From Acaryochloris marina MBIC11017 (GTDB lineage Bacteria > Cyanobacteriota > Cyanobacteriia > Thermosynechococcales > Thermosynechococcaceae): a DNA stretch of 32,000 nt. The position numbers were made by a program, and so were the translations under genes. The notes below the pieces were generated by a model. The model did no database searches. It was not told the DNA's origin and worked only from the letters and a program-made list of their open reading frames with translations. Shown here in pieces: positions 2,832 through 27,990 of the stretch (position 1 is its first letter; the number at the start of each line of letters is the position of its first letter). The DNA is taken from assembly GCF_000018105.1 (NCBI RefSeq), contig NC_009931.1, positions 92,962 through 124,961 on the forward strand. The letters are read 5' to 3'.

Positions 2832-3305
2832 TTAGCCTTTAGAGGGTGAAATGTGACATAGACCTTCCTCTGGCCTCTTCAACAACATCTCCGCAGCCCC
2901 CATCTTAGCTTTCTTCTTCGATGCTCCCTCGCCTACTCCCTGTAATCCCATCGACTGCACTAAACAACGAAACCCTTCTGATATCTCTGAAAACTCGTAC
3001 CTGGGCAACGATATTTGCTGTTTCTGGCAAAGCTCTTGCAATTGTCCAATCGGATTCTTCACCTGTTCATCAACCTGGCTGATGGGCTGATCAGGGGAGG
3101 TCTCAGGTTGCTCGGCTTCTTCCTGGCGTGGATGTAAGATATGTACCTGCTGTTCGGCCTTGAGGATAGCTCGGTTCCTAGCCCGTTCAAGGAGCCTGAT
3201 CAAAGCATCTTCTGGATCAACATTGGGGTACAAATAGTCGAGAAATCCAAGCTGCTCTTCGGTTAGTCGAACGTTTAGGCTGAGGGAAGGTCGAGATTCA
3301 ATCAT
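2832..3305 (-). CDS. small protein with a C-terminal double-stranded-RNA-binding domain (DSRM) and an N-terminal helical, possibly RHH-like, region
   Basis: NPIGQLQELCQKQQISLPRYEF...GVGEGASKKKAKMGAAEMLLKR matches the DSRM consensus seen at the RNase III C-terminus (P-x-x-x-LQE...LP-x-Y...G-x-G-x-SKK-x-A-x-x-x-AA). The start is in a 4-nt ATGA overlap with the upstream gene stop (3302-3305). Confidence 0.75.
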   Translation of the reverse strand: MIESRPSLSLNVRLTEEQLGFLDYLYPNVDPEDALIRLLERARNRAILKAEQQVHILHPRQEEAEQPETSPDQPISQVDEQVKNPIGQLQELCQKQQISLPRYEFSEISEGFRCLVQSMGLQGVGEGASKKKAKMGAAEMLLKRPEEGLCHISPSKG

Positions 3306-7233: not shown

Positions 7234-7524
7234 ATGATTGAGTCTTCAGTGGGAAAATATGGATGGTCGCTTTTCCCATTTAATCAACCCATTACGAATG
7301 CTTATCTTTTTGATGAAAGCAATACTATCCAAGGACCATCTAACTGCTCAGTAGCTAAACTAATTAGGAGTTTAGATTTTGATGGTAATAGCGTTGGAAA
7401 ATGCATACTCAGGGAAGAAACTTTGTGCGAAACCTATGTATGTAATATCACTGGACTAGTGAAAGCGCTTGATCACCTAGATATGCGGATAATTTCTAAT
7501 GTTGTTCAAACAGCCTATGGATAA
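7234..7524 (+). CDS. hypothetical small protein upstream of the TpsA-like gene (weak call)
   Basis: 96-aa ORF ending 24 nt before the TpsA start. No motif recognised. Confidence 0.25.
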   Translation: MIESSVGKYGWSLFPFNQPITNAYLFDESNTIQGPSNCSVAKLIRSLDFDGNSVGKCILREETLCETYVCNITGLVKALDHLDMRIISNVVQTAYG

Positions 7525-7548: not shown

Positions 7549-10080
7549 ATGAATTATCGAAGTCTTCTAGAAAAACCTTTTTTAGCATTAGGGTTTCTTT
7601 TACTGTCAGCAAACCATGTAAATCCGCAGATCCTCCCAGATACAACACTCGGACCTGAAAGTTCAATCTCAATGCCTAACCAACTTATTAATGGTATACC
7701 GAGTATACGGTTGACTGGAGGAGCGACAAGAGGGTCAAATCTTTTCCACAGTTTTTTAGAGTTCAGTATCAACAATGGGCAAGCTGTTTATTTTGATAAT
7801 CCACTAAGTGTCAAAACTATCTTATCGAGAATAACTGGGAACAAGGTTTCACTAATTAATGGGGTACTAGGAAGTACAAGTAACGCTGATCTATTCTTTG
7901 TTAATCCTAATGGAATTATTTTTGGGCGAAATGCTGTCTTAGATATCAACGGTTCATTTTTTGGCAGCACTGCCAATCATCTTAGATTTATGGATGATTC
8001 AATTTTTTCCGCGAATCAGACCCATCAGGCTCCACTGTTAACAAATAGCTTGCCAAAAAGTCTTGAATTTGAAGGAGGGAATGGCCCAATACAGGTGATA
8101 GGCGAAGGCAATCGATTAACTGATTTCACAATTCTTCCTATTTTTAACCCTTTCGATCGTCCTCTCGGGCTAGCCCTAAGACCCCAAAATACATTTGCTT
8201 TGATCGGTGGAGAAATTCAAAGCCAAGGTGGTGTTATTAGATCTTCCAGTGGGCGAATTGAGTTGAGTAGTATCACCAAAGGAAAAGTACTTCTGAATCA
8301 ACTGAATTCAGATTGGACATTTGAGTATTCTGAAGTAGACTCTTTTGGGGACATCGCTCTCAACCAGCGATCCTTAATTGATACATCGGGTCTGGTCGGA
8401 GGACCCATTAACCTTCAAGCTAAGAACATCCTCCTGAATGATGGATCAACTGTTTTAATTCAAAATCTGGGCAATCTACCTTCAAGCGATATCACAGTTA
8501 ATGCTACCGATACAGTAACAGTGAGTGGAGTATCAAACGATCCTCGCTTTACACTTCCAGAAATCGCTCTAATCGCAGGGGATGAGTTGAACGTTAAAAT
8601 CCCCAGTACCTTTCTCACAGAAGCCCTTGGCCTTGGCACATCTGGTAACATTAAGATTTTTTCCCCAACAATACTAGTAAATGGTGGTGGACAAATTCTG
8701 GCTAGAACCAATGGGCCTGGAACTGCTGGAGATATAACAATCACATCCCCAGAATCTGTTCAAATAGACGGATTCGCACCAAATTTACCTGTTGTTTTTA
8801 GCAATATAAGCACTGCCACCTTTAATAGGGGTAATGCTGGAAATCTTGCAATATTCACCAACCAGTTGCTTGTGACCAATGGGGCTAATGTTGGTTCTTC
8901 GACTTTTGGGCTTGGAAATGGAGGAGATGTCCTTATCAATGCGAAAGATATTACTTTGAAAGGGATCGTGCCTGTCTTGTTTATTCCTAGTGCAATTAGT
9001 TCTGCTACTTTCAGTTTTGGTTCAGCAGGTACGTTGACCCTAAATACCTCTACATTGACATTGTTGGATGGCGGTAGGCTCGGAACATCGACAGTATCCT
9101 CAGGTAATGCAGGCAAAGTCACTATCAATGCATCTCAATTGATCAAAGTCAGTGGGACAGTTCCTGGGTCAATCAATCCTAGCTTGATTGATTCTTCCGC
9201 AAATATTGTTGACCCAGCATTAAGAGAACAACTCGGACTGCCGGGTGCGCCCCTACCCAATATTCCCAGCGGTACTGCTGGGGACGTAACCATTAGAACA
9301 AAGACCCTTCTCGTAAATAACGGTGGTCTCATCAGTGTTCGGAATGACGGCACAGGTGACGCTGGAACCCTGAGAATTTTTGCTGATTCCATCAAGTTAG
9401 AAAACAGAGGGAATATTGCTGCTTCAACGGCTGTAGGAAATGGAGGTAATTTAGTTTTTCAAATCCAAGATCTTTTATTTCTTAACCAATCGAGTAACAT
9501 TACTACCTCTGCCCAAAAATTTGGTATTGGCGGCAATATTGATATTAATTCAGGTGTAATTGCACTGTCGAATAATAGTGTCATATCTGGAAATGCTGAA
9601 CAAGCCAGTGGAGGTAATATTCGCATTGAGACCCAAGGAATATTTGTTTCAAGCGATAGTAAAATCACTGCTTCCTCACAACTTGGCCCTCAATTTTCGG
9701 GCAATATTGAGATAAACACACCAAATATCGATTTCACAAAAGCAACATTGGATCTGGCTGTAAGACCTGAAGTTGAAGAGGTTGCCATAAGCTGCAATAT
9801 TGATCCTGGAGAAGTAGCCAGCGAATTTACTCGTCCTGGCTCTGGTGGGGTTGCCTCAAATGCAGAAAAAACAGGGGAATTGAGAGTCGTTAAGAACAGG
9901 AATAATAATCTACAAACTCAAGAATATTATCTTGATCCAGAAACAGGAGAACCGAAAGTATACCCAAAGGTTGTTGGCTGGAAACGCAACCCAAATGGCA
10001 CAATTGCCATGACTTCAGACCCGACAGAAGCAGTCCAGACTCAAGCGTTTTGCTCAAGAACTGCTCACAATAATCTATAA
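7549..10080 (+). CDS. TpsA-type exoprotein with filamentous-haemagglutinin N-terminal (TPS) secretion domain and beta-helix repeats
   Basis: Signal peptide. TPS-domain motifs GGATRGSNLFHSFLEFSI and LFFVNPNGIIFG (NPNGI box). Repeated GNAG/GTAGD-x-T-I beta-helical units follow. Confidence 0.9.
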   Translation: MNYRSLLEKPFLALGFLLLSANHVNPQILPDTTLGPESSISMPNQLINGIPSIRLTGGATRGSNLFHSFLEFSINNGQAVYFDNPLSVKTILSRITGNKVSLINGVLGSTSNADLFFVNPNGIIFGRNAVLDINGSFFGSTANHLRFMDDSIFSANQTHQAPLLTNSLPKSLEFEGGNGPIQVIGEGNRLTDFTILPIFNPFDRPLGLALRPQNTFALIGGEIQSQGGVIRSSSGRIELSSITKGKVLLNQLNSDWTFEYSEVDSFGDIALNQRSLIDTSGLVGGPINLQAKNILLNDGSTVLIQNLGNLPSSDITVNATDTVTVSGVSNDPRFTLPEIALIAGDELNVKIPSTFLTEALGLGTSGNIKIFSPTILVNGGGQILARTNGPGTAGDITITSPESVQIDGFAPNLPVVFSNISTATFNRGNAGNLAIFTNQLLVTNGANVGSSTFGLGNGGDVLINAKDITLKGIVPVLFIPSAISSATFSFGSAGTLTLNTSTLTLLDGGRLGTSTVSSGNAGKVTINASQLIKVSGTVPGSINPSLIDSSANIVDPALREQLGLPGAPLPNIPSGTAGDVTIRTKTLLVNNGGLISVRNDGTGDAGTLRIFADSIKLENRGNIAASTAVGNGGNLVFQIQDLLFLNQSSNITTSAQKFGIGGNIDINSGVIALSNNSVISGNAEQASGGNIRIETQGIFVSSDSKITASSQLGPQFSGNIEINTPNIDFTKATLDLAVRPEVEEVAISCNIDPGEVASEFTRPGSGGVASNAEKTGELRVVKNRNNNLQTQEYYLDPETGEPKVYPKVVGWKRNPNGTIAMTSDPTEAVQTQAFCSRTAHNNL

Positions 10081-10086
10081 TTTTTC

Positions 10087-11790
10087 GTGATTACAATAAA
10101 AAAAACCGTTGTCCTTGGCATTGCTGGACCCTGTTTTTTTGCGCATCCAGCTATCGCCCAAGCAGACTCTTTAAACCCATCGGATCTGATCCCTCGGAAA
10201 TCGCCTTTCCCTGAAATACCCAGGCTTCCACAATCAGATAAACCCCTTAAAACTCCCTTGCTGCCGGGGCAAAATCCTCCTGTCTTAGTGGATGAATCTG
10301 TTCAAGTTGAAACCTTTATTTTTAAGGGCAATACCGTTTATTCGGATCTTGATTTATCTAAAATTGCTGTACCTTATCTACAGGAACCACAGACGTTATC
10401 TGACTTACAGGAACTTACGCAGAAAATCTCTGAATTTTACGCTAATGCCGGGTACGTCGCTACCTCAGCAACGATAGCTCAACAGGAAAACTCAAAGATA
10501 ACGCCTGACAAAGCTGTGATCACAATATTGATCACGGAAGGGAAATTAGAAGCAGTCGATATCCAAGGCGCAGATCGGCTAGAAAAATATATTCGTCGGA
10601 GGCTACCTAAGCCCAACACGATTATCAACGAAGACACCATTTTAGAAGATATCCGACTGCTCCAGGCCAATCCTTTGGTTAAGCAGATTTCCGCTAGCTT
10701 GATTAAAGGAGCCTATCGGGATCGCTTTACCCTTAACGTTGAAGTGGTGCCAGCAAAACAGAGAAGTTTAGCTCTAATCTTGGACAATGATCGGTCGCCC
10801 TCCATTGGCAGTTTTCAGCGGAGTGTGGACTTTACAGATCGCAACCTCTTGGGGTTAGGAGACACCGTAAACTTCAAGTTCTCCAACACCGATGGCAGTA
10901 ATTCCGTTCAATTCTCCTACTTCCTTCCTGTTAATTCACAAAACGGTACTGTGGGTGTGAAGTACTTCTACGGCTCCAGCAAGGTGGTAGAAGACCCATT
11001 TGATGAAGTCGATATCAGCGCAGTTGCTGATTATACTGAAGTCTTCTTCCGACAACCGATCATCCACGAGGCAACCGCTGACTCTGTTCAAGAATTTGCC
11101 TTGGGGCTGTCCTTCAGTCGAGAAACTAGCGATTTCACGCTACTGGGCATACCATTCCCTGTTTCTCGCGGATCTGATCCTATGGGTGAGACAAAGACGT
11201 CTGTTTTACGCTTCTCGCAGGACTGGTCTAAGCAATCTGCTGAGAACGTGTTTTTTGCCCGATCTCAGTTCAGTTTTGGCTTACCGATATTGGATGCAAC
11301 CATCAACTCTACGGGTCCAGATGGGCGCTTTTTCCTATGGCGATTGCAAGGGTTGTGGGGTCGGAGATTATTCGACGACTGGACAATAACTTTTCGTTCC
11401 GAACTCCAGCTTGCGGATAGCCCCTTGGTCCCCGCTGAGCAGTTCACATTGGGGGGGTTCTCGTCCGCTCGGGGTTATCGTCAAAACCTGTTGTTGGGGG
11501 ACAATGGCTGGCTCGGGGCAGTCGAGCTGGGGATTCCACTTTACTCCGGTTCATTGGGGAATTTAAGCCTCGCTCCTTTCTTTGAAGTTGGAACCGTTTG
11601 GGATAACCAACCTCAACTTATTGCCACTCCAAGCACCCTCGCCTCTACGGGCTTAGGATTACGGTTTCAGGCCAAAGACTGCTTGAGTGCGCGGATAGAT
11701 TGGGGTATACCGTTAATCAACATGCCTGACAATCGCTCCACACTTCAAGAATCTGGCGTTTATTTCTCACTGCGATGCGATATTCTCTAG
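10087..11790 (+). CDS. ShlB/FhaC/HecB-family TpsB outer-membrane transporter (POTRA plus 16-strand barrel)
   Basis: Signal peptide ending AIAQA. ShlB-type POTRA (FIFKGNTVYSDLDL...ISEFYANAGYVATSA). Barrel motif FTLGGFSSARGYRQN. C-terminal aromatic-rich strand. GTG start 6 nt after the TpsA stop. Confidence 0.9.
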   Translation: MITIKKTVVLGIAGPCFFAHPAIAQADSLNPSDLIPRKSPFPEIPRLPQSDKPLKTPLLPGQNPPVLVDESVQVETFIFKGNTVYSDLDLSKIAVPYLQEPQTLSDLQELTQKISEFYANAGYVATSATIAQQENSKITPDKAVITILITEGKLEAVDIQGADRLEKYIRRRLPKPNTIINEDTILEDIRLLQANPLVKQISASLIKGAYRDRFTLNVEVVPAKQRSLALILDNDRSPSIGSFQRSVDFTDRNLLGLGDTVNFKFSNTDGSNSVQFSYFLPVNSQNGTVGVKYFYGSSKVVEDPFDEVDISAVADYTEVFFRQPIIHEATADSVQEFALGLSFSRETSDFTLLGIPFPVSRGSDPMGETKTSVLRFSQDWSKQSAENVFFARSQFSFGLPILDATINSTGPDGRFFLWRLQGLWGRRLFDDWTITFRSELQLADSPLVPAEQFTLGGFSSARGYRQNLLLGDNGWLGAVELGIPLYSGSLGNLSLAPFFEVGTVWDNQPQLIATPSTLASTGLGLRFQAKDCLSARIDWGIPLINMPDNRSTLQESGVYFSLRCDIL

Positions 11791-14243
11791 CCATACTTCT
11801 CAGTACAACTATGGTCCTGACAGGCCTACCCGTCTGGGCAGACGCCATCGAGGACGCAGGCCAGTACGCTGCAAAAGGCCAATCTCTTCTGGAGCAGGGC
11901 AACCCCAGTGCTGCGCTGGAGACCTGGCGGAAAGCTTTGCAGATATACAAAAAAGAGAAATCAGAAACAGGCGAGAAAAATGCGCTTGTGAACATGAGCG
12001 TAGCGCATCAGGCGAAAGGCCAATACCCTAGCGCCTGTTGGGTACTGATGGATGCGCTTGAGGTAGATAGGAGTGCCATTTGCCGCAATGTCAACCGACC
12101 CACGCCTGAAGAGGTTGACAACGCCCTGAATATCATCAAGAAACAACCAGACACATCACTCACCCTCAAAGCCCTACAAGAGCTAGGTATCACGTTACGA
12201 GTGATTGGGAATCTTGATGAATCTGTATCCGTCCTGGAGCTAGCTCTAGCCTCAGCTCAACGGCAAAATCTAGGTTTAGAGCAGAACGCGATCAGGATGA
12301 GCTTGGCGAATGTGCAAGCAGATATGATTCGCCAAGCTCAGAATCGATTTTCTTTATCAGACAATCCACTGACTAAAGCTCAATTTGTGGCGGTCCCAAC
12401 TTCGACCCTCCCGGAAGTGTCGCAAACTTATCTGGATCTGGCTGAACAAGGGCCAGAATTTCTGCAAGCGCGATTAAATTGGCTCAAATTGTTCTTAGCT
12501 ATTCATCAATGGGCTAACCAAGATCCAACAAATCCTAAGCTATCTGCACTCAGAGCCAGCTTGTTACCCCACCTGGCCTCCACGCTGAACAAAGCCGTGG
12601 TCGCAGATTACACCATCGAATCACCCATCGAAAGTATCTACAGTCGAATCAAGTTAGCAAAATACCTTCTGGAGATACAGCAGAATGATTTACCTGTATC
12701 CACGGAAAAGCATCCACTCATTCACGCCTTTGAACTGGTAAATTCAGCTCGCAATGATGCCCTGAATATCAAGAACAAGCGGGCGGAATCCTTTGCTATA
12801 GGGGTTCTTGGGAAGTTATATAAAACCTCGCAGCAAATTGAACAGGCACAAGAAGCGTTTGAGGCTGCTAGAGTTCTCGCGGCCACGAGTGAATCATCCG
12901 ATTCAGCCTATGAGTGGGAATGGGAGTTAGCTCAACTTTACCGAGAAAAAGGGCAAACCCAAGAGGCTATCTCAGCCTATGAACGCTCCTTCAAACATCT
13001 CGATCAGGTGCGAGGTGATTTGCTCCCTATCGACTCGGAACTACTGTTCAGGTTCTCCGATAAAGTTAAACCCGTTTATCAGCAATACATCAGCCTATTG
13101 TTGGAATCTGACTCACCAGATCTTGAGAAAGTTGTTCTAACCAATGAGCAACTGCAAGTCGCCCAAATTGAGAATTTTCTCCACTGCGGAAAGCTGATTT
13201 TTGTATCCACAACCAAAATCGAGGATGCACCGACAACCATCCACATTCTGGAACTTGAAGATAGGTTTGAGATTCTCGTGCCCAACAACGAAACTTGGGC
13301 ACGGTTCTCAGCGGATGGAGAGAGAGTCAGGGGACTTGCCCGTAAGCTCCTGATCGAGCTTCAAGATCAAGGCTTCTCTGATACGGATGACAATTATTTG
13401 TTAGCAGAGTCCCAATCGCTCTACCAGCTATTGCTAGGCCCCATTGAGCAACAGGGATTATTGCCAGACCAGGAGGATACGATTGTATTTGTCACGGATG
13501 GCCTGCTGAGCAACATTCCGCTATCCATACTCCATGATGGGAAGGAATACTTAATCGAGCGCTATAGCATTGCAACTAACCTGGGGAGGTTGCAAGCTCC
13601 CAAAGCAACGAACCCAGAACGACTTAAACTGCTGATCGCGGGAATATCGAAAGCAAGTCCAAGCCTATCTGCTCCACAGGTGCCCCAGGATCTTGAAGTC
13701 TTGACAGAAACTGAAGAAGAAGCCAATTTAATTAGCAGCAGTATAAGAGCATCTACCTTGCTGAACAAAAATTTTACTGCTGACAACCTTCAAAGGAAGT
13801 TGAACGACGATTACAATGCATTGCATATTTCCACCCACGGGCAGTTCTCCTCTGATCCCAATCAGACATTTTTACTGGCCTGGGACAAACCTCTACCATT
13901 ACAAGAACTTGATTCCATCCTAAGACAGGGCACTCAGGTTGCTGCCAACAATTTGGAGCTACTATTTTTGAGCGCTTGCCAAACCGCCAAGGGTGACCCC
14001 TTATCAAGCCTGGGGATTGCGGGTGTCTCCATCCAGGCGGGTGCGCGATCAACAGTTGCCTCATTATGGCTAGTAGATGCTCAATCCACTGCTCAACTTG
14101 CAGGCAGCTTCTACGAATCACTAGCTAATGGCAAGACGAAAGCTGAGGCACTACGGAAGGCTCAATTAGCATTATTGGACAAACCCGCCACTCGTCATCC
14201 GTACTACTGGGCTTCATTCTTTCTCTCAGGGAGCTGGCTTTGA
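11775..14243 (+). CDS. exported TPR-repeat / CHAT-domain (caspase-fold peptidase-like) protein
   Basis: N-terminal signal peptide MRYSLAILLSTTMVLTGLPVWADA. TPR-like helical repeats. CHAT core with the His/Cys dyad: LHISTHGQF (His codon 13836-13838) and LLFLSACQTAKGD (Cys codon 13977-13979), then HPYYWASFFLSGSW. The start overlaps the TpsB stop by 16 nt. Confidence 0.9.
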   Translation: MRYSLAILLSTTMVLTGLPVWADAIEDAGQYAAKGQSLLEQGNPSAALETWRKALQIYKKEKSETGEKNALVNMSVAHQAKGQYPSACWVLMDALEVDRSAICRNVNRPTPEEVDNALNIIKKQPDTSLTLKALQELGITLRVIGNLDESVSVLELALASAQRQNLGLEQNAIRMSLANVQADMIRQAQNRFSLSDNPLTKAQFVAVPTSTLPEVSQTYLDLAEQGPEFLQARLNWLKLFLAIHQWANQDPTNPKLSALRASLLPHLASTLNKAVVADYTIESPIESIYSRIKLAKYLLEIQQNDLPVSTEKHPLIHAFELVNSARNDALNIKNKRAESFAIGVLGKLYKTSQQIEQAQEAFEAARVLAATSESSDSAYEWEWELAQLYREKGQTQEAISAYERSFKHLDQVRGDLLPIDSELLFRFSDKVKPVYQQYISLLLESDSPDLEKVVLTNEQLQVAQIENFLHCGKLIFVSTTKIEDAPTTIHILELEDRFEILVPNNETWARFSADGERVRGLARKLLIELQDQGFSDTDDNYLLAESQSLYQLLLGPIEQQGLLPDQEDTIVFVTDGLLSNIPLSILHDGKEYLIERYSIATNLGRLQAPKATNPERLKLLIAGISKASPSLSAPQVPQDLEVLTETEEEANLISSSIRASTLLNKNFTADNLQRKLNDDYNALHISTHGQFSSDPNQTFLLAWDKPLPLQELDSILRQGTQVAANNLELLFLSACQTAKGDPLSSLGIAGVSIQAGARSTVASLWLVDAQSTAQLAGSFYESLANGKTKAEALRKAQLALLDKPATRHPYYWASFFLSGSWL

Positions 14244-15169
14244 TATCGATCCAGCGCTTGCAGTCCCTCAGTCGCTTTCTTTAGGGCAATTTGATTACCC
14301 TGAGCCTTTGCCAGTTGCTTAGCCTTGAGATACTGCTTCCTGGCCTCACTGAGTAATTTCGCATCAATATACCGTTCGGCTAAGACTCTAAAAATCTCTG
14401 GGTGGTTGCTACCCGACTGAACCCTATCCCTTAATGCTTTAATACTCTGATTTAGTAGACCCTCATCCAAGTAGGCAGCGTTTAAGTCTAGATAGGCTTC
14501 TTGGTCTGGATCAAGATTTAGACGGCGAATGAGCTGGATAGTCTGCTGAAGCCGCCTGGTTTTAGCGGAATCAAGTAAACGGAATATTGATGAATCCGCG
14601 ACAATCGGAACGTCATTTCTATAGGCAACCACACTGACCTTGTAATGATTCTCTGAACTCAAGGGGGCTTGTTCGGTAGGATATGCCGCAGACGTTGAGG
14701 TTGTGGTTATTGACCATAATCCTTTTTCCTGATCAGCAACTTCTAGCTGATATTTCGTTGCGCCAGGAACAGCTAACCAAGTAAAGCTTGGCCGGGTTTC
14801 TAGCAGCCAACGACCATAGGGAGTGATAATTCTGGGTGTTTCTCCTGACCCTTGTCCTCCCTTGATTCGCTTACAAAAGCTACGAGAAGAAAGAGGACAT
14901 TTTTTTCTGGAATTCCTAGTCTGTTTTTTAGGCTGACACGGTTGCTCAGATCCGCTGAAGTAGCAGAGGACCATACCACCCTTAATTTGTGAAACTATCT
15001 GGTCACCATTGCAAAGTAATTTACCGACGAGGTTCTGCTGATTCGTCTTCAAAATTCGGCCAATCGGTTCACAGGCATCGTTCTTGGGTTGCACCTGAGC
15101 CATAGACAAAGCAGGCCAAAGAATAAGTGAGGCCGTCAGAGTTAAGCTAACTTGCACCGCGAATTTCAT
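14204..15169 (-). CDS. secreted Cys-rich protein with a DUF928-like central module and helical (TPR-like) C-terminus
   Basis: Signal peptide MKFAVQVSLTLTASLILWPALSMAQV and 8 Cys in the first ~100 mature residues. KRIKGGQGSGETPRIITPYG...TRPSFTWLAVPGATKYQLEV resembles, from memory, the R-x-GG-x-x...P-T-F-x-W layout of cyanobacterial DUF928 proteins. The 3' end overlaps the CHAT gene 3' end by 40 nt, convergently. Confidence 0.65.
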   Translation of the reverse strand: MKFAVQVSLTLTASLILWPALSMAQVQPKNDACEPIGRILKTNQQNLVGKLLCNGDQIVSQIKGGMVLCYFSGSEQPCQPKKQTRNSRKKCPLSSRSFCKRIKGGQGSGETPRIITPYGRWLLETRPSFTWLAVPGATKYQLEVADQEKGLWSITTTSTSAAYPTEQAPLSSENHYKVSVVAYRNDVPIVADSSIFRLLDSAKTRRLQQTIQLIRRLNLDPDQEAYLDLNAAYLDEGLLNQSIKALRDRVQSGSNHPEIFRVLAERYIDAKLLSEARKQYLKAKQLAKAQGNQIALKKATEGLQALDRYQSQLPERKNEAQ

Positions 15170-15218
15170 CTGAAGAAGGGTAAAATACCTATTTTTTCTT
15201 TGTTAATAAGATTATAGG

Positions 15219-16955
15219 CTACGGTTTTTGAAATATTTTATCAAGAACACCGTCTTTCCATTCTTCGACCTCTGGTAAAAAAGAATCTAGCCGCAAGCAA
15301 GCCTTCCATGATTGCTGGGCAAGCGTATCATTACCTTGTTCCTGATAGACTTGGGCGATCAGGCAATGGGCGGCTGCCATTTCAGGATCTGAGCGAATCG
15401 CTTGTTGTAAACGTCCCTCAGCTTGCCTGTAATCTCCCAGCTTGAATTCAGCCCATCCCAAATTCTTCAGCAGACGCGCTCTACTTAAATCCTCGGCAGC
15501 CTTATCCAGTGCCCCTATCACCAAAACTTTGGCTTCTTCATAATTACCCTGCAAAATTTTGAGACGAGATAAATTACTTGCTGATCCTACGACTTGGATG
15601 TCTGTAGCGTTATCAATTACCAGCTTGTAGTATCTCTCGGCTAAATTGTTATTCCCTTGATCTTCATACATGGCAGCAAGATTGAATGTTGATATCCAAT
15701 AATTAGGATTTGTCTGAGCAGCTTTTTGAAAATTCTCAATAGCACAGGGAAGATTCCCCTGGACCTCACAAACAAGACCGAGATTGTTGTAAGCTTCTTC
15801 GTTGTTGGGATTGAGACGTAATGACTGCTGGTAATTTTGTTTTGCAGCATCAAGCTGATTATTCAATTGCTCATCACGCCCCTTTATAAAGTGACGTTCG
15901 GCCATGAATTGATCGTATTCGCCCTTAATCTCCCTAATAGCAAAGGAACCCAAAACAGCTAATAAAACAGCTAAAAAACCCACACTACACTTGAAATAAG
16001 GAGAGCGGCTGGTTTTCTCCCAAAGCTCCAACTTTCCTATATCTTGAAGTAAATACTGAGTACTTTGATGCCGATCTCCTGGTTGAATCGACGTCATTTT
16101 ATCCAGAAGATTAGCAAATCTGCGGTGTAAGCGGGGAGCTTGATCTTGCCAAATGGGTTGACCAGTTTGCTTGTCGATGGGGAGTTTGTAGGGCTGAATC
16201 CCCGTCAGTATTTCGATGATTGTCCGACCTAGTGCATAAAAATCTGACTGGGGTAGCGCTTTTCCATTAACCTGCTCTAGCGGGGAATAGCCCATGCTTT
16301 GAATCAAAGTAATATCGTCAAAGCGCTCAGTAATGTCATCAGTATTCTCAGGCGTTGCTAACTTAGCAATGTAGGTTTCGCTGATTGGCCTAATTGCACC
16401 GAAGTCTATTAAAGCCAGTGTTCCATCGGGTCTCACAATGATGTTTGAGGGTTTAATGTCTCGATGGAAAAACCGTTCATTGTGTACTGCATGGAGAATT
16501 TCAGCTAGTTGCTTAAGCCAGTTGAGTGCTTGATGGGGTGGTACTGGATCATGAGTTTTTAGCCATTCCTTGAGATTCTGTCCCTCAAAGCGCTCCATCA
16601 CAAATCCATAGATCTCGCTTGGGCTTTGGATAGGATTTAGTTTGATGGTGTAATACTCCCACCATTCCGCTCTGGGAACGCAAGGATGGCGAATACTCCT
16701 AAGTGCAACATATTCACGCTCAAACATCGTTACTAACTTTGGTTGCACATCCTTGAGGATCTTTATGATTTTGATATCGTCATCACCAGCTTGCGCTTCA
16801 TAGATATCGGTACGCCTAAGTGGGTGAAGATCATTCAACGGTTTTAGCAGGCGATACTTTTCCCCTATAAGCAAGGAAACACCACACCCCTGACAACACT
16901 CCAAGTGATCTGGATTTTGCCGCTGATCACAGTTTGGGTTTGGACAGTAACTCAC
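15219..16955 (-). CDS. transmembrane Ser/Thr protein kinase: N-terminal 4-Cys zinc-ribbon, Hanks kinase domain, one TM helix, C-terminal TPR array
   Basis: CPNPNC...CQGCG; catalytic loop HRDIKPSNIIV; DFG (LIDFGAIR); GYSPLEQ (APE equivalent). TM VGFLAVLLAVLGSFAI. At least five TPR-like units (AYNNLGLVCEVQGN, AAMYEDQGN, LIAQVYQEQGN and others). GTG start 15 nt downstream of the STAND gene stop. Confidence 0.9.
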   Translation of the reverse strand: MSYCPNPNCDQRQNPDHLECCQGCGVSLLIGEKYRLLKPLNDLHPLRRTDIYEAQAGDDDIKIIKILKDVQPKLVTMFEREYVALRSIRHPCVPRAEWWEYYTIKLNPIQSPSEIYGFVMERFEGQNLKEWLKTHDPVPPHQALNWLKQLAEILHAVHNERFFHRDIKPSNIIVRPDGTLALIDFGAIRPISETYIAKLATPENTDDITERFDDITLIQSMGYSPLEQVNGKALPQSDFYALGRTIIEILTGIQPYKLPIDKQTGQPIWQDQAPRLHRRFANLLDKMTSIQPGDRHQSTQYLLQDIGKLELWEKTSRSPYFKCSVGFLAVLLAVLGSFAIREIKGEYDQFMAERHFIKGRDEQLNNQLDAAKQNYQQSLRLNPNNEEAYNNLGLVCEVQGNLPCAIENFQKAAQTNPNYWISTFNLAAMYEDQGNNNLAERYYKLVIDNATDIQVVGSASNLSRLKILQGNYEEAKVLVIGALDKAAEDLSRARLLKNLGWAEFKLGDYRQAEGRLQQAIRSDPEMAAAHCLIAQVYQEQGNDTLAQQSWKACLRLDSFLPEVEEWKDGVLDKIFQKP

Positions 16956-16970
16956 TGGTCAACAACCTTG

Positions 16971-18356
16971 TTAAGCTGCCTGGGTAATCCGACTTTTGAC
17001 CGCTCCAGTAGGATCTGTGTTCAGATATTTCTGAAGAACTGGAGGCATCTTCAATTCCAAGGCTCTTGCTGTGAATTCCTTCTCAATAACTGAACGCTCT
17101 GTTAGGGAATTGAGTGCTTCCAGGATTTGGGATTTTGAGGTAACACATTGGCACTCCTCAACTAAGTACTGAACCAAACTATCTAAGGTGATTGACTCAT
17201 TCTGTTCTAGCTGCTGGGCCACGAAAACTAGGATTTGTATCTCCAGCAAATTGTAGTTTCCTTTATTGCTAAATTGCTGATCAAACTTAGAAAGGAAAGG
17301 ATCACCCAGCCAGGTAGTTTCATACTCGACAAATCGACTAACCTGTCCACCAAAAAACTCTTTAATGCGACTTGCTATACTATTGAGCGCAAGTGGATTT
17401 CCACGATATTGACCAGCAATTTTTATCCATTCTTTTTTACCAGATAAATCGTATTCTTTATATATCCCTACAGACTCATCTGCAGTAACTCCCAACAATT
17501 GCAAAGTCTTGACTGGCTTCCCTGTATTACCCAATTCATCGAGATCTTTAAATATTTCTCTACTGGTTAAAACTATGCAACTCTGGTGAGATTCTTCTAT
17601 AACTCTTCTTAAGAAAATCCCATAGCTGGAGTTCTCTTCTCCATATGGATTAAAAGAGTTACCTTTCAGTATTGATTCACACTCATCCAGAACTAACAAA
17701 CATCGATTTGTCTTGAGTAGTTCTATGAAATCATCACTTGTGTATGCTTTGTCTTTATCAAAAGCTTCTGGGTTGACATCTCGAATAATATCTCGACATA
17801 AGTCTTCCATCTTGGGGGAGTAACCAATTGACTTCCAGATATACAGAGCATATTCATAATCTGGGGACTGGCGAACGGTGTCAACCAGCTTCGCAGCTAA
17901 ACTGCTTTTTCCAATTCCAACCGGGCCTGTTATAACAACACAGTGATTAGCCTGGGTGTCCTTCAGTAAGGTTTCTACTTCTTTTGCTCGACCATATATA
18001 TTCTCATGAGTCGGTAAGTAGCCAATCAAAGGCTGAGCTTTGTCAATCCATAATTCACCATTTTTAGGCAATTCATCTACCGATTGGAGTAAGTTTCTAA
18101 CAAATCCCTGTATGTATGGCTTCCCAATTTTATGCTCATCGCCAACTGCTTCTTGGAGGAATCGCCATAGCCCAGGCCCAGCAGTATTACAGAGATAGAC
18201 CTTCTCAAATCGTGACTTATCTGCCAAAGCCTCATAAGACAAGCCCTCGATAGAACCCCGCAGGATATAATTCTCAACCTCATTGAGCTTCTTGCCTCGA
18301 ATTTTGAGGGATTGATCATCAACCCAGGCATAAAACTCTTCCAATGTTATAGCCAT
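16971..18356 (-). CDS. short STAND (NB-ARC-like) P-loop NTPase with N-terminal HTH-like domain and no repeat sensor array
   Basis: Walker A VVITGPVGIGKSSLAAKL and Walker B CLLVLDECE. The N-terminal ~90 aa (LNEVENYILRGSIEGLSYEALA...GPGLWRFL...KIGKPYIQGFVRNLL) follow the pattern common at N-termini of cyanobacterial NB-ARC/WD40 proteins. At 461 aa, no WD40/TPR/LRR follows. Confidence 0.85.
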   Translation of the reverse strand: MAITLEEFYAWVDDQSLKIRGKKLNEVENYILRGSIEGLSYEALADKSRFEKVYLCNTAGPGLWRFLQEAVGDEHKIGKPYIQGFVRNLLQSVDELPKNGELWIDKAQPLIGYLPTHENIYGRAKEVETLLKDTQANHCVVITGPVGIGKSSLAAKLVDTVRQSPDYEYALYIWKSIGYSPKMEDLCRDIIRDVNPEAFDKDKAYTSDDFIELLKTNRCLLVLDECESILKGNSFNPYGEENSSYGIFLRRVIEESHQSCIVLTSREIFKDLDELGNTGKPVKTLQLLGVTADESVGIYKEYDLSGKKEWIKIAGQYRGNPLALNSIASRIKEFFGGQVSRFVEYETTWLGDPFLSKFDQQFSNKGNYNLLEIQILVFVAQQLEQNESITLDSLVQYLVEECQCVTSKSQILEALNSLTERSVIEKEFTARALELKMPPVLQKYLNTDPTGAVKSRITQAA

Positions 18357-18671
18357 ACCCGTCCCTGTATAGATTCTTTGCTAGAAATCCAAAGTAAGTT
18401 AATACAGATAAGTATAAATGATAGCTATTAACCTATTGAATTAATATCATTATCTGATGAATATTCACAGACTCGATGGTAATTATCTCTCAATCTCATG
18501 TAAGCAAGAAGCCATATAGCCCCATCAACAGCACTATAAGTCAGATGTCATAATAGATTATTAATCCTTTTCTAGTGGATATAGTGAATTATCTAGTAAA
18601 AAAACTATTAATTTAATTCTATATTTGTAGTAATCTTGCTTTTAAGGTCTACTAAACCTGGAGTCAAGATA

Positions 18672-19256
18672 ATGCTTGAGCATAATTCCATCCCCGAACA
18701 GATTCAGCCACAGCTACTCAAGCTCTCCCTAATAGAGCTAGACGAGGGAATTCAACCCCGACAGAAACTCAGTCAGGAGGTGATTACTGAATATGCGGAG
18801 GCTATGAGACAGGGAGCTACGTTTCCGCCTGTTATTGTTTTCTTCGATGGCAATAAATACTGGTTGGCAGACGGATTTCATAGGATTGCTGCAAAAAAGG
18901 CGAATGGCGATCTTGAAATCATCACGGAGAAAAAGCTCGGCTCCCGTCGAGACGCGATTTTATATGCCGTTGGAGCTAATGCAACTTACGGGCTTCAGCG
19001 CAGTAATGACGACAAAAGAAAGGTGATTAAAAAAATGTTGAGCGATCACCAGTGGTGTCAGTGGAGTAACCGCGAAATTGCTCGGCGCTGCAAAGTTAGC
19101 TATGAGATGGTCAGAAACATCAGAAATGAGCTGCCTGACAACCGCTGTCAGATACAAAAGTTAACAAAAATCTCGCGAAAAGGAGATCGACGTCTTGTTC
19201 TACGAAAAGGTAAAACTTATAGCATGAACATATCAAATCTTAAACACCCTAAATAA
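18672..19256 (+). CDS. ParB/Srx-fold N-terminal-domain protein with HTH (short paralog)
   Basis: PPVIVFFDGNKYWLADGFHRIAAKK (DGFHR box), ILYAVGANATYGLQRSNDDKRKVIKKML and SNREIARRCKVSYEMVRNIR (HTH). The ATG at 18672 with GGAG 8 nt upstream is preferred over the TTG at 18636 given in the ORF track. Confidence 0.85.
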   Translation: MLEHNSIPEQIQPQLLKLSLIELDEGIQPRQKLSQEVITEYAEAMRQGATFPPVIVFFDGNKYWLADGFHRIAAKKANGDLEIITEKKLGSRRDAILYAVGANATYGLQRSNDDKRKVIKKMLSDHQWCQWSNREIARRCKVSYEMVRNIRNELPDNRCQIQKLTKISRKGDRRLVLRKGKTYSMNISNLKHPK

Positions 19257-19455: not shown

Positions 19456-20556
19456 ATGCCGCCCCAAAAGCCCCAAAGCAATTCTTCAGAACCCACCGTT
19501 CAGTCTATTGTGATAGCCAATATTCGCGTGGATGGAGGAACGCAACCGCGCTCCCAATTATACGAAGAAGTGGTAGCAGAATATGCTGAAGAAATGAAGG
19601 AAGGGGCAGATTTCCCACCTGTAACTGTTTACTTTGATGGCAAGGAATATTGGCTAGCTGATGGCTTCCATAGAGTACGGGCCAAAGAAACTTTAGGAGA
19701 AAAGAAAGTTGCTGCTGAAGTCTATTGTGGAACTCAACGAGATGCAGTGCTATACGCTGTTGGAGCTAATGCTAAACATGGATTGAGACGAACGAATGCA
19801 GATAAACGTCGTTCTGTAGAAAGACTACTACGCGACTATGAGTGGAGCAGATGGAGTGATCGCGAGATATCTAGAAAATGTGGCGTTAGTTCTACTATGG
19901 TTAACAATCTGAGAAAATCTATAGAATCGCCTGAACAAAGCTCTGCAAAAGACGATAATTTTATTTCAGATGATCTCTCTAAAATACGCCTTGCCCAAAG
20001 GGGTGGGAAAACATATGAGATCGATACCACTAACCTCAGTAAAATTAATCAGAAGAAGACATTATCACCAAGGCGAAAAAGAGCTAAAAAGCAGCCTAAA
20101 TCTACTTCAGAGTCTATTGAGGCTCCACCTAAGCGCGTTCGGCCAGGTGAGGTATGGAAGCTTGGGAGGTTTCATTTTCTTTTTTGTGGTAATCCAGACT
20201 CTGATGAATTTCAGCAGCTTTTACCATCGGAAATTTCATTGCTACTTGTCTTTCCTCAGTCATCCGAGCAGTGGCCCCAAACTAGGCCACAAAATGCAAG
20301 AAGTGTAGTGGTATTCGATACTCCTTTCGGTGAAGACCTGCATTTGGAAACTTTAAGAGGAATTATCGAAAATTCCCTTGCAGGGACTACAGATGCTAAT
20401 GATCCGGTAGTTATCATAAATCTCCTTGATCCATCACTGTTTATTCTGATAGACGATTTGCAATGCAGATGTTGTTGTGCTGAACCTGATCCACAGCGCT
20501 GCTCAGATGCTTTAACGGCATGGTCAGTGACAAATCAGCCATCAAAGAGGTTGTAA
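19456..20556 (+). CDS. ParB/Srx-fold N-terminal-domain protein with HTH and a degenerate DNA-methyltransferase-like C-terminal tail (long paralog)
   Basis: The core is collinear with the upstream paralog (PPVTVYFDGKEYWLADGFHRVRAKE, VLYAVGANAKHGLRRTNADKRRSVERLL, SDREISRKCGVSSTMVNNLRK). The tail GEVWKLGRFHFLFCGNPDSDEFQQLL...LLLVFPQS mirrors the G-D-x-W-x-LG-x-H-R-L-x-CGD...DLV-x-TDPPY start of ParB-fused N6/N4 methylases. FPQS (20251-20262) sits where DPPY would be. Confidence 0.85.
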   Translation: MPPQKPQSNSSEPTVQSIVIANIRVDGGTQPRSQLYEEVVAEYAEEMKEGADFPPVTVYFDGKEYWLADGFHRVRAKETLGEKKVAAEVYCGTQRDAVLYAVGANAKHGLRRTNADKRRSVERLLRDYEWSRWSDREISRKCGVSSTMVNNLRKSIESPEQSSAKDDNFISDDLSKIRLAQRGGKTYEIDTTNLSKINQKKTLSPRRKRAKKQPKSTSESIEAPPKRVRPGEVWKLGRFHFLFCGNPDSDEFQQLLPSEISLLLVFPQSSEQWPQTRPQNARSVVVFDTPFGEDLHLETLRGIIENSLAGTTDANDPVVIINLLDPSLFILIDDLQCRCCCAEPDPQRCSDALTAWSVTNQPSKRL

Positions 20557-27900: not shown

Positions 27901-27990
27901 TACAAAGCCCAATGCCCACATGAACCTTACCGATGGGTCTCAGAACTGGCCCATCATCTTAAGTCCCAAAGCCACGATGCCAACCATTAG
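24943..27990 (+). CDS. VirB4/TrbE-family type IV secretion ATPase with N-terminal VirB3-like double TM segment
   Basis: 1015 aa. Two N-terminal TM helices. Walker A MIILGGTGSGKSF (GGTGSGKS = 26773-26796). Walker B-like PTLLVGEEGSKL. Size and position are typical for VirB4. Confidence 0.88.
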   Translation: MSDNTIQYTPSLDKAPDRFFIPGQFLIPWIAIITGVAVLYLLVASVTPVSPWPFGLLLVVLIASHWIIVGDKPWKFGGSLHRPKEYVTAHAEYKTTSTSLKPKIGPKVVGGARKRKAFPIEDEVDLACMAIIRLQGYVVGAYLLQVGRRFRFVWVFDSPGLSSTLSVDQAKAAAQKLEEGLMDLPHAEQMTLHMGTMADCQERLNQLEDLKRRAPSDQFRFLLSWLKERVKSLTRRGQYNPKFLRFYVTYTVGVGMSQQDDQIQAVAQSLQEMWQEHMGSGGSNIYARTEQMLLDAFRHGFLPTLDFFEKVGLKVTPMTADQIWAFSYQRVNSGKVPPIPQWVQLDENGITWGKKSELRIASVLFGQGIFMDKRFVHLPGRNLYCGGVVLNKRPAREYDPDTGRLQQLMDASSPINAKKVSNTELIVEFTPDNQQDVLKSSQKRTGQSNLSLVMSQNRKKLDGGAIHNTNTDLAAEMKLRQGARVVRCAWMALIYRSTPDALDVALKRFRTNQSLFAGECLVRERGYFDQLWLEAQPYTWRTLLAGGGLLKISSFERRIRETTPAVLGITPVMLDRRPHKKGVELLTDNGTPLYVDPLASEPKHNHMIILGGTGSGKSFAVSACCEQVLAEGGQVLIIDATRGDGSGTYDELTTFLGGAYFNTTTDSFNLIEGTDFRQLLGNQDAYKSAQQTFRQFVQTALMDLCLPEDVNSEKRESVSRALTFLLDNFFKEPSILTRYNRAFDAGMGTPAWEQIPTLTTLTEYIDPSNVPPEVLTQDIIAAIDTLKVSLSALLRRPIGAIISRPTTFNTDANLVVYALGNIDNDEDMAPLALAAQASVLSRSLGQKPTLLVGEEGSKLHKFKSYRQMLGSFYSIGRKNGIWTIWVGTDLQVLAKADNAAEILANVGTYLVGAINEEEVPLLVKLGIPRELLIQNVDEEFIPSRKDACSKWLISSNGNHQFGRYHPSFANFGLTMNGPDEVPVKASYKAQCPHEPYRWVSELAHHLKSQSHDANH

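Follow-up and report, generated by a model that had tools for sequence, protein, structure and literature searches.

On a plasmid of the cyanobacterium Acaryochloris marina MBIC11017, an operon for two-partner secretion (TPS) and a caspase-fold peptidase runs tail to tail into an operon for a receptor kinase and a STAND ATPase, which raises the question of whether these six genes belong to one system and, if so, what such a system would do. We addressed this question on a stretch of 32,000 nucleotides (nt) of plasmid DNA (contig NC_009931.1, positions 92,962 to 124,961), which as a whole is called the window below, and in which a product of 321 amino acids (aa), here named p4, is 100% identical to AM1_F0125 (172,728-bp record). 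The plus strand encodes, in this order, a TpsA-like exoprotein, a TpsB transporter and a tetratricopeptide repeat (TPR)-CHAT protein predicted to be exported; the minus-strand operon encodes a STAND ATPase with a helix-turn-helix (HTH) and an NB-ARC domain, then a protein composed of a zinc ribbon, a kinase domain, a transmembrane (TM) helix and TPRs, and then p4. p4, the kinase and the STAND ATPase are found all together or not at all, their linkage is more than chance, and p4 is the physical and evolutionary hinge between the secretion genes and the signalling genes. The reading that we prefer, held tentatively and given not quite an even chance, is that together the six genes make up a composite system borne by the plasmid, namely a trans-envelope signalling circuit with a secreted protease and an exoprotein at its centre.

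The linkage of the genes was assessed from three independent anchors, namely the STAND gene in species-representative genomes, the CHAT gene in metagenome loci and p4 in plasmids. For the STAND anchor, a family-specific motif gave 33 genome loci, in which the six window proteins were searched by tblastn. The kinase gene was adjacent in 32 of the 33 loci, the exception (L035) being a partial paralogue; p4 was present in all 30 loci that extend past the kinase, CHAT in 26 of 27 testable loci, with the single exception (L011) abutting an insertion sequence (IS) transposase at a contig end, and TpsA in all 22 testable loci. TpsB is the variable member of the cluster: only 4 of 22 STAND-anchored loci have it between the TpsA and CHAT genes, and most Nostocales copies lack it; a TpsB remnant survives in one locus (L025). 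The CHAT anchor drew on 80 metagenome loci that hold full-length relatives of CHAT, and 60 of these have at least 1 kb downstream of CHAT. p4 was found in 9 of these 60, each of them among the closest CHAT relatives apart from one further locus (L075), and those with enough flank also carried the kinase (5/5) and STAND (5/5). Among the loci that lack p4 and extend for 5 kb or more downstream, STAND was found in 0 of 36 and a strong kinase match in 1 of 36 (Fisher test of STAND presence by p4, ~1.3e-6, with the relatedness of the loci ignored), and TpsA and/or TpsB were present in 22 of 25 p4-less loci. For the p4 anchor, a tblastn search against PLSDB gave 47 plasmids, all cyanobacterial, and the block was present in each of the nine that were inspected. 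The same block of TpsA, CHAT, p4, kinase and STAND genes was found in Acaryochloris, Nostocales, Leptolyngbya, Microcoleus and Thermosynechococcaceae, and the set stays together despite the inversion of STAND in most Nostocales, the loss of TpsB and insertions; it is kept at 30-40% protein identity, and the CHAT orthologues make up 16 clusters at 60% identity.

An earlier note on this DNA, made from its letters, had described six open reading frames (ORFs) in two convergent and overlapping operons and had suggested that they make up one envelope-spanning sensing/effector system. All six ORFs are present where it had put them, the operons converge with 40 bp shared by their last genes, and profile searches against Pfam and NCBIfam confirmed its TPS, ShlB/POTRA_2, CHAT, Pkinase, TPR and NB-ARC calls; the CHAT dyad that it had named, His688/Cys735, is exact to the residue. 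With the domains confirmed and the genes linked from all three anchors, the six genes therefore behave as one conserved unit rather than as two operons that occur independently, and the domain calls do not fail.

The two operons are joined at their very ends. An overlap of the CHAT and p4 coding regions, 26-59 bp in length and most often 40 bp, was found in 23 of 34 related loci and is annotated in plasmids of Nostoc PCC 7120, N. punctiforme, T. variabilis, Leptolyngbya boryana and Acaryochloris 'Moss Beach', and the conserved ends of the two proteins mirror each other in antisense, SQLP..AQ at the tail of p4 corresponding to YYWA.F.L.GSWL at the C-terminus of CHAT. The terminator scan gave no terminator-like site at this convergent junction. 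In a variant locus (L046, 1128-4613), p4 is co-directional with CHAT and not convergent.

What kind of protein, then, is p4? An exhaustive search gave a family of 1363 representatives, mostly of 300-350 aa and aligned over the full length. The AlphaFold2 model, made with 66 homologues, reached a predicted local distance difference test score (pLDDT) of 85 and a predicted template modelling score (pTM) of 0.82, and its best PDB matches by Foldseek were the C-terminal domain of MtxA (8e-7), FN3 domains and the TPR chaperone PcrH. The six Cys residues of p4 are invariant or near-invariant, and a linker, of low confidence in the model, holds a conserved C-x3-4-[KR]-G motif that is a candidate CHAT cleavage site. 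The FN3 unit is a repeat of the Ig_Rha78A_N type, of which giant proteins hold up to 18 copies. Three of these giant proteins, P0063 (2182 aa), P0065 and P0103, carry 10-18 tandem copies of the Ig_Rha78A_N/FN3-type domain of p4, and their C-termini include an FGE-sulfatase domain in P0103 and an Lcl C-terminal domain in P0065.

The earlier note had taken p4 for a Cys-rich, secreted, DUF928-like protein. Membership of p4 in Pfam DUF928 (PF06051) was rejected, as the window protein gives no match to it, and a remote kinship at best is what stands of this assignment: weak DUF928 matches were found in 3 of 66 p4 family members (best 4.1e-5), and hhalign of the p4 family against true DUF928 gave a probability of 69.5% (E 4.2e-5) over 144 columns that take in the beta-sandwich and the helical parts. 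The association of TPS, CHAT and DUF928 genes in cyanobacteria, which the note had named, proved real, as 31 of 51 p4-less CHAT loci hold a true DUF928 gene (Pfam ~1e-56), often right after CHAT and sometimes convergent and overlapping with it. p4 and DUF928 are mutually exclusive, no CHAT locus having both, which suggests that p4 is the DUF928 counterpart of the kinase-associated clade, a putative positional replacement and at best a remote relative. Furthermore, a fusion protein (P0172) was found in which a zinc ribbon, a kinase domain and a TM helix are followed by the FN3 and TPR-like region of p4 in place of the TPR ectodomain, and its neighbourhood is the same as that of the cluster, with an HTH-STAND gene upstream and a convergent CHAT remnant. 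Through this fusion, p4 is tied to the outward side of the kinase, and the topology that we infer for the kinase gains indirect support.

Export and topology were predicted by a simple heuristic hydrophobicity test on the window proteins and their orthologues. In the window, signal-like N-termini were found on TpsA, TpsB, CHAT and p4, one TM segment in the kinase and none in STAND; by this test five products (TpsA, TpsB, CHAT, p4 and the kinase with its ectodomain), and not the four that had been counted before, are predicted to be exported or to have periplasmic domains. The deposited annotation starts CHAT at residue 13 (810 aa) and p4 at residue 23 (299 aa), and these shorter starts cut off the signal-like N-termini of the longer ORFs and of the orthologues. 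In TpsA, the NLFHSF and NPNGI motifs are kept in 18-20 of 20 orthologues (NPNGI in 19-20 of 20). Beyond the TPS domain, TpsA has a beta-helix-type repeat region and then a conserved C-terminal region; its conservation spans the full length, with no toxin-like variable C-terminus. The window has the sequence hallmarks of type Vb secretion, namely a TPS domain with NPNGI and a partner with POTRA domains and a barrel, and export of TpsA would depend on TpsB. The CHAT protein belongs by sequence to the caspase-fold (clan CD) peptidases, its dyad is intact, and it is predicted to be proteolytic. Sequence searches of the PDB with CHAT, STAND and TpsA gave no match, and a profile search with CHAT matched TPRs only.

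The kinase has an intact active site, K65, D166, N171 and D184 being invariant in all 35 orthologues, as are the four Cys residues of the zinc ribbon. In Nostoc sp. PCC 7120, the copy on pCC7120alpha (L124, 245494-248706) is split by insertion of a TnpB element (IS200/605-type) into a fragment with the 4-Cys prefix and the body of the kinase, and this copy is probably non-functional. On a Fischerella plasmid (L128, plasmid2), an integrase cassette that includes an 'S23 ribosomal protein' gene lies between the kinase and p4.

In the STAND ATPase, K150 and D224 are likewise invariant (35/35) and the motif YRGNPLAL is conserved, and a profile search matched plant NLR NB-ARC structures at 1e-12. 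The protein had been described as a repeat-less STAND, which holds, since no TPR, WD40 or LRR repeat or sensor family was found in its 461 aa; what had been overlooked is its N-terminal HTH_VMAP-M9 domain. In the Microcoleus orthologue, a LuxR/GerE HTH (9.2e-8, above the gathering score) takes the place of HTH_VMAP-M9. An HTH at this end of the protein speaks for an output through transcription or DNA binding and against an effector trigger. Another locus (L043, 2332-6252) encodes a related short STAND, named a LuxR-family regulator in its annotation, and after it a Ser/Thr kinase with an ANF_receptor/Peripla_BP_6 ectodomain; this pair comes with no CHAT, TPS or p4. As its ectodomain is a different one and CHAT and TPS are lacking, the STAND-kinase pair appears to be a signalling unit able to take different inputs, and the pair suggests a wider family of STAND and receptor-kinase pairs. 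A distant STAND relative stands alone in Pseudanabaena. The divergent kinase/STAND intergenic regions of Nostocales (L009, L010, L020-L030, L038, L039) share sequence blocks, for example ATGTTACTTTC, and hold two AATCAACT-like 8-mers separated by 19 bp, which are candidate promoter or operator elements.

The mobile-element setting proposed in the earlier note is stronger than it had stated, as the cluster lies on a plasmid with ParB-like and VirB4/TraG-like genes beside it. The plasmid of A. marina S15 is syntenic with the window, on to a CyRepA1 replication gene, and in several other plasmids (L001, L125, L126, L129, L130) a CyRepA1/DUF3854 replication (Rep) gene lies beyond STAND, often with an integrase. 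Upstream of the cluster, the minus strand of the window encodes a small protein with a double-stranded-RNA-binding motif (2832-3305), a cytochrome P450 (5407-6750) and an OmpR-type response regulator (916-1659); the first two of these genes are syntenic with the S15 plasmid and absent from other related loci, and therefore lie outside the conserved block. A 96-aa ORF at 7234-7524 gave no family match, is unannotated in the S15 plasmid and was left out of the cluster. Within the cluster, the Rfam search gave no match, and promoter-like sites (16 found vs 20.4 expected) and terminator-like sites (4 found vs 10.0 expected) were fewer than in shuffled controls. The G+C content has its minimum of 0.37 at 7-8 kb, where the cluster starts, is 0.40-0.51 over 8-21 kb, which covers the cluster and the ParB-like genes, and is mostly higher beyond 21 kb in the conjugation-like region (0.43-0.55, generally 0.49-0.55).

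Table. Features of the cluster and of its flank in the window (positions in window nt; residues numbered in the longer ORFs).
Feature	Position	Strand	Size or residues	Basis and remarks
TpsA-like exoprotein	7549..10080	+	843 aa	Pfam PF05860 3.5e-50; TIGR01901 1.1e-20
TpsA, TPS secretion domain with NPNGI	7627-8397	+	residues 27-283	after N-terminal signal-like segment
TpsB outer-membrane transporter	10087..11790	+	567 aa	ShlB 9.7e-22; Omp85 3e-14; POTRA_2 2.6e-10
TPR-CHAT peptidase	11775..14243	+	822 aa	CHAT (PF12770) 3.9e-54; TPR families
CHAT protein, signal-like N-terminus	11775-11846	+		hydrophobic stretch
CHAT domain	13410-14234	+	residues 546-820	TPR region lies N-terminal
CHAT, predicted catalytic dyad	13836-13838 / 13977-13979	+	His688 / Cys735	invariant in 25/25 orthologues; H and C verified in window
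CHAT/p4 coding overlap	14204..14243		40 bp	last 13 codons of each gene antisense to the other
p4, predicted secreted adaptor	14204..15169	-	321 aa	no Pfam family; predicted signal peptide at 15098-15169
p4, six-Cys small beta domain	14873-15073	-	residues 33-99	
p4, FN3/Ig domain	14576-14833	-	residues 113-198	
p4, TPR-like six-helix domain	14237-14569	-	residues 201-311	
Ser/Thr receptor kinase	15219..16955	-	578 aa	Pkinase 3.7e-22; TPR families
Kinase, 4-Cys zinc-ribbon prefix	16872-16949	-		NCBIfam 4Cys_prefix_kin, 24.9 bits vs cut-off 24
Kinase, Hanks-type kinase domain	16053-16778	-	residues 60-301	
Kinase, TM helix	~15927-15995	-	~residues 321-341	one hydrophobic 19-mer at ~320-343
Kinase, extracytoplasmic TPR domain	15246-15896	-	residues 354-570	C-terminal of TM helix; predicted topology
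Sensor-less STAND ATPase	16971..18356	-	461 aa	NB-ARC 6.1e-11, 42.5 bits vs gathering score 23.5; NACHT; nSTAND1
STAND, N-terminal HTH (HTH_VMAP-M9, PF26355)	18072-18356	-	residues ~1-95	precomputed Pfam for the identical protein P0211 and relatives
STAND, NB-ARC NTPase	17322-17999	-	residues ~120-345	Walker A K150; Walker B D224
STAND, C-terminal winged-helix region		-	residues ~370-445	protein ends after winged helix
Two ParB-N-like proteins	18636-19256, 19456-20556	+		directly beyond STAND
VirB4/TraG-like ATPase	24943-27990	+	1015 aa	beyond ParB-N-like genes

How might these parts work together? In the trans-envelope circuit that we prefer, two modules would be combined. The first is an envelope secretion and processing set, which would consist of the TpsA exoprotein, the TpsB pore, dispensable in cis, and the TPR-CHAT cysteine protease, presumably exported by Sec; this set is widespread in cyanobacteria, normally with a secreted DUF928 protein. 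The second, a signalling set, would consist of p4, probably derived from DUF928, a single-pass Ser/Thr kinase with a periplasmic TPR ectodomain and the cytoplasmic HTH-NB-ARC STAND. In the periplasm, p4 would bridge the CHAT/TpsA machinery and the kinase ectodomain, as a co-receptor or as a CHAT substrate; the kinase would pass the state of CHAT/TpsA and p4 across the inner membrane and switch the sensor-less STAND by phosphorylation or by binding; and STAND would then act on DNA through its HTH, with the cluster itself or the adjacent replication/partition region as likely targets. The envelope-spanning layout, which the earlier note had suggested, fits both the sequence features and the kinase::p4 fusion. 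Single steps of this scheme have precedents: AfsK phosphorylates the DNA-binding STAND protein AfsR, with effects on both the ATPase activity and the DNA binding of AfsR (PMC10936776), and dedicated proteases carry out the maturation or release of TpsA proteins, as SphB1 does for FHA and, under the control of LapD, periplasmic LapG for CdrA (PMC5422565).

Several observations weigh against this circuit. The hydrophobicity test is a crude basis for the export and topology calls, and an N-terminal hydrophobic stretch was found in 19 of 25 CHAT and 14 of 20 TpsA orthologues, an incomplete pass rate that is partly due to start-codon choice. The STAND model, made from a 10-sequence alignment, is poor (pLDDT 64), and the Foldseek matches that it gave (NLRs, CED-4, Apaf-1 and ORC/Cdc6) only confirm the AAA+/STAND and winged-helix class; hhalign of VMAP-M9-type against GerE-type N-termini gave a weak match from shallow alignments. 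Moreover, helical domains of the class to which HTH_VMAP-M9 belongs have been proposed as invader sensors of conflict systems (PMC7159879), so that DNA binding by STAND is no more than putative. No clear operator common to the TpsA upstream and the kinase-STAND intergenic regions was found, the shared sequence being one weak 8-mer, AATCAACT, and the upstream flanks of TpsA are unrelated between loci. Most copies from Nostocales share one rep-proximal block of the plasmid backbone, so the locus counts overstate the number of independent events and the synteny may be partly inherited, and the splitting of the kinase by the TnpB element indicates that the system is dispensable in PCC 7120. Finally, the literature gave no description of the cluster, of TPS with CHAT (and DUF928) or of DUF928 function, the search having included no look-up by locus tags of N. 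punctiforme or PCC 7120.

A more specific form of the circuit, as a part of the backbone of cyanobacterial megaplasmids, would run from the surface to the replicon: the p4/TPR receptor kinase would read the periplasmic or extracellular state of the exoprotein and the protease, and the minimal, NLR-like HTH-STAND would control the neighbouring replication, partition or transfer genes. We consider this version unlikely, including the inputs envisaged for it, which would be self/non-self contact, cell density or envelope damage, with the exoprotein and the protease diversified per plasmid. If true, a plasmid would here encode its own sensory system, in which an NLR without a sensor serves as a transcription switch regulated by phosphorylation.

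Related to this, the cluster might have a function of the plasmid backbone, either in conveying envelope or extracellular cues to replication, partition and transfer through the HTH-STAND or in plasmid-specific surface identity, exclusion or policing, to which we assign a low probability. In 36 of the 38 plasmid records that are in both the Rep and the p4 lists, the distance from p4 to a CyRepA1/DUF3854 Rep gene is 4.5-7.5 kb, and Rep comes right after STAND; a Rep gene beyond STAND was also found in ~26 of 33 whole-genome shotgun (WGS) loci and in two metagenome loci, and in none of the p4-less CHAT loci. In most Nostocales, STAND and Rep point the same way and the kinase diverges from STAND, the STAND gene of the window abuts the two ParB-like genes with the VirB4/TraG-like ATPase beyond them, and several strains carry one copy of the cluster on each of three to five plasmids. 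However, Rep is found on 89 plasmids and p4 on 47, so Rep works without the cluster; the two genes are 127 kb apart in a Fischerella plasmid and 76 kb apart in one N. flagelliforme plasmid, and no Rep gene was found within 9 kb of p4 in Leptolyngbya. The adjacency may be inherited backbone synteny, and pCC7120alpha is stably maintained though its kinase is disrupted.

Could the signal run in the other direction? In an inside-out control of an adhesin, in the manner of LapD, LapG and CdrA, a cytoplasmic state, such as the nucleotide state of STAND or the activity of the kinase, would make the TPR ectodomain of the kinase and p4 hold or free periplasmic CHAT, which would trim TpsA or release it from the cell surface; we think that this is improbable. 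The cleavage of the P. aeruginosa TpsA protein CdrA by a periplasmic Cys protease and the maturation of FHA by SphB1 (PMC5422565) speak for it, as does the full-length conservation of a TpsA without a toxin-like variable C-terminus. CHAT, the kinase ectodomain and p4 all hold TPR-type protein-binding modules, and the p4 or DUF928 gene is physically locked to the CHAT gene. Such a scheme leaves the HTH of STAND unexplained, no c-di-GMP or comparable cytoplasmic input domain is present, and cleavage of TpsA by CHAT is putative. It also runs against the habit of Hanks-type receptor kinases, which normally signal outside-in.

The earlier note had placed CHAT and STAND among the recurring parts of conflict and programmed-death systems. 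In an anti-phage system of this kind, STAND would sense an invader and trigger the kinase, and CHAT and TpsA would then act as envelope effectors, for which we see a small chance. CHAT and STAND proteins do recur in prokaryotic conflict systems, where VMAP-M domains are proposed sensors (PMC7159879); the cluster is plasmid-borne, diversified and present in several copies per cell, and a PIN/DUF2281 pair and a caspase-family gene lie near some copies. The kinase scores strongly against defence models, its residues 1-317 matching PADLOC PDLC04044 and PDLC04051 (PD-T4-6) at 5.8e-86 and 2.6e-83. This match was rejected as evidence of defence, because the PD-T4-6 models also call housekeeping kinases, among them the PASTA kinase in every S. 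thermophilus genome (PMC11514479). The PADLOC models, applied as profile models and not through the PADLOC or DefenseFinder rule engines, gave no relevant match for the other four proteins. Avs4 reached ~15 bits vs a cut-off of 1500, and nothing points to a programmed-death or anti-phage role. STAND is without a sensor repeat domain, the Microcoleus orthologue has a LuxR DNA-binding HTH, and the ancestral TPS-CHAT-DUF928 module occurs without NTPase or kinase. Since CHAT carries a predicted export signal, which would place it outside the compartment of STAND, the cytoplasmic STAND cannot activate it directly, and the best reading is that the cluster is not a cytoplasmic STAND-to-caspase death switch.

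That there is no functional unit at all, the TPS/CHAT and kinase/STAND operons being unrelated, placed tail to tail and hitch-hiking on a plasmid lineage, is already disfavoured and very improbable, for although many of the sampled loci come from related Nostocales plasmids and TPS-CHAT alone as well as STAND or STAND-kinase pairs alone exist, three samples with independent anchors agree on the all-or-none pattern, the block is kept across Acaryochloridales, Nostocales, Leptolyngbyales, Oscillatoriales and Thermosynechococcaceae despite inversions and insertions, p4 as the putative DUF928 replacement is found only with the kinase and STAND, and the kinase::p4 fusion exists.

The trans-envelope signalling circuit, with p4 between its two modules, thus remains the reading that we prefer. 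The conserved five-/six-gene system has apparently been undescribed so far, and TPS and POTRA do not appear in the main survey of STAND/CHAT conflict systems. Intact copies are available in tractable strains, namely two in N. punctiforme (pNPUN01 and pNPUN02; genes NPUN_RS34060-34080 and NPUN_RS36135-36160) and one on plasmid A of T. variabilis ATCC 29413. The large orphan families DUF928 and p4 gain a context as periplasmic partners of exported CHAT proteases, and the system offers a test case for the role of exported caspase-fold proteases in bacteria, for the switching of a sensor-less STAND/NLR-type ATPase, possibly by a receptor kinase, and for the kind of conserved cargo that cyanobacterial megaplasmids hold next to their replication genes. 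It also advises caution: an assignment of 'CHAT + STAND' to death or defence needs a check of compartments, and PADLOC PD-T4-6 matches of kinases should not be taken at face value.

Every part of the cluster comes from a known family and both of its halves have known analogues; what is joined here is TPS with an accessory protease and a putatively kinase-regulated STAND, and the system is not categorically new. With Avs/AVAST and the vWA-MoxR-VMAP systems, it has in common an NB-ARC-class P-loop and, at the N-terminus, the domain family VMAP-M9, whose first definition came from VMAP proteins (PMC7159879), whereas the STAND described here falls far below the Avs4 cut-off and has neither a C-terminal sensor repeat nor a fused nuclease or protease; no vWA or MoxR domain of the ternary system was found in any ORF of the window. 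PD-T4-6, a single-gene kinase defence of E. coli represented by a PADLOC model, has a Hanks-type kinase as well, but the match covers the zinc-ribbon and kinase part only, and the kinase here is a TM receptor with a TPR ectodomain in a five-/six-gene block. A TPR region followed by CHAT with a His/Cys dyad is also known from Csx29 of the type III-E CRISPR 'Craspase' and from HetF of Nostoc, which reside in the cytoplasm or are associated with the membrane and are either switched on by RNA-guided complexes or active in development; the TPR-CHAT protein here differs in its predicted export signal and its TPS partners.

For the signalling half, the closest likeness is to AfsK/AfsR of Streptomyces, where an N-terminal DNA-binding domain, putative in the present case, and an NB-ARC/NOD ATPase are likewise found near a Hanks-type kinase (PMC10936776). 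AfsR carries a SARP domain and a C-terminal TPR sensor, whereas the STAND here has an HTH of the HTH_VMAP-M9 or LuxR type and no sensor, its phosphorylation is proposed, and the TPRs are on the kinase, where they would lie outside the cytoplasm. For the secretion half, FHA/FhaC/SphB1 and CdrA/CdrB/LapG-LapD share a TpsA protein, a TpsB pore and an envelope protease, and the Lap system also shares a transmembrane protein that couples a cytoplasmic state to a periplasmic protease (PMC5422565). The present protease is of the CHAT (caspase) fold and not of the subtilisin or LapG type, its cleavage of TpsA is putative, a Ser/Thr kinase with TPRs stands in for the GGDEF/EAL receptor as membrane partner, and a STAND is added. 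Most similar as a whole is the cyanobacterial neighbourhood of TPS, TPR-CHAT and DUF928 genes, where TpsA, sometimes TpsB and a TPR-CHAT protein with an export signal are likewise encoded, and where the gene right after CHAT is for a small secreted protein with beta-sandwich and helical parts; in the cluster described here, p4, with a Cys-rich N-domain and a clear TPR-like C-domain, replaces DUF928, and a receptor kinase and an HTH-STAND are added, the whole being rep-proximal on plasmids.

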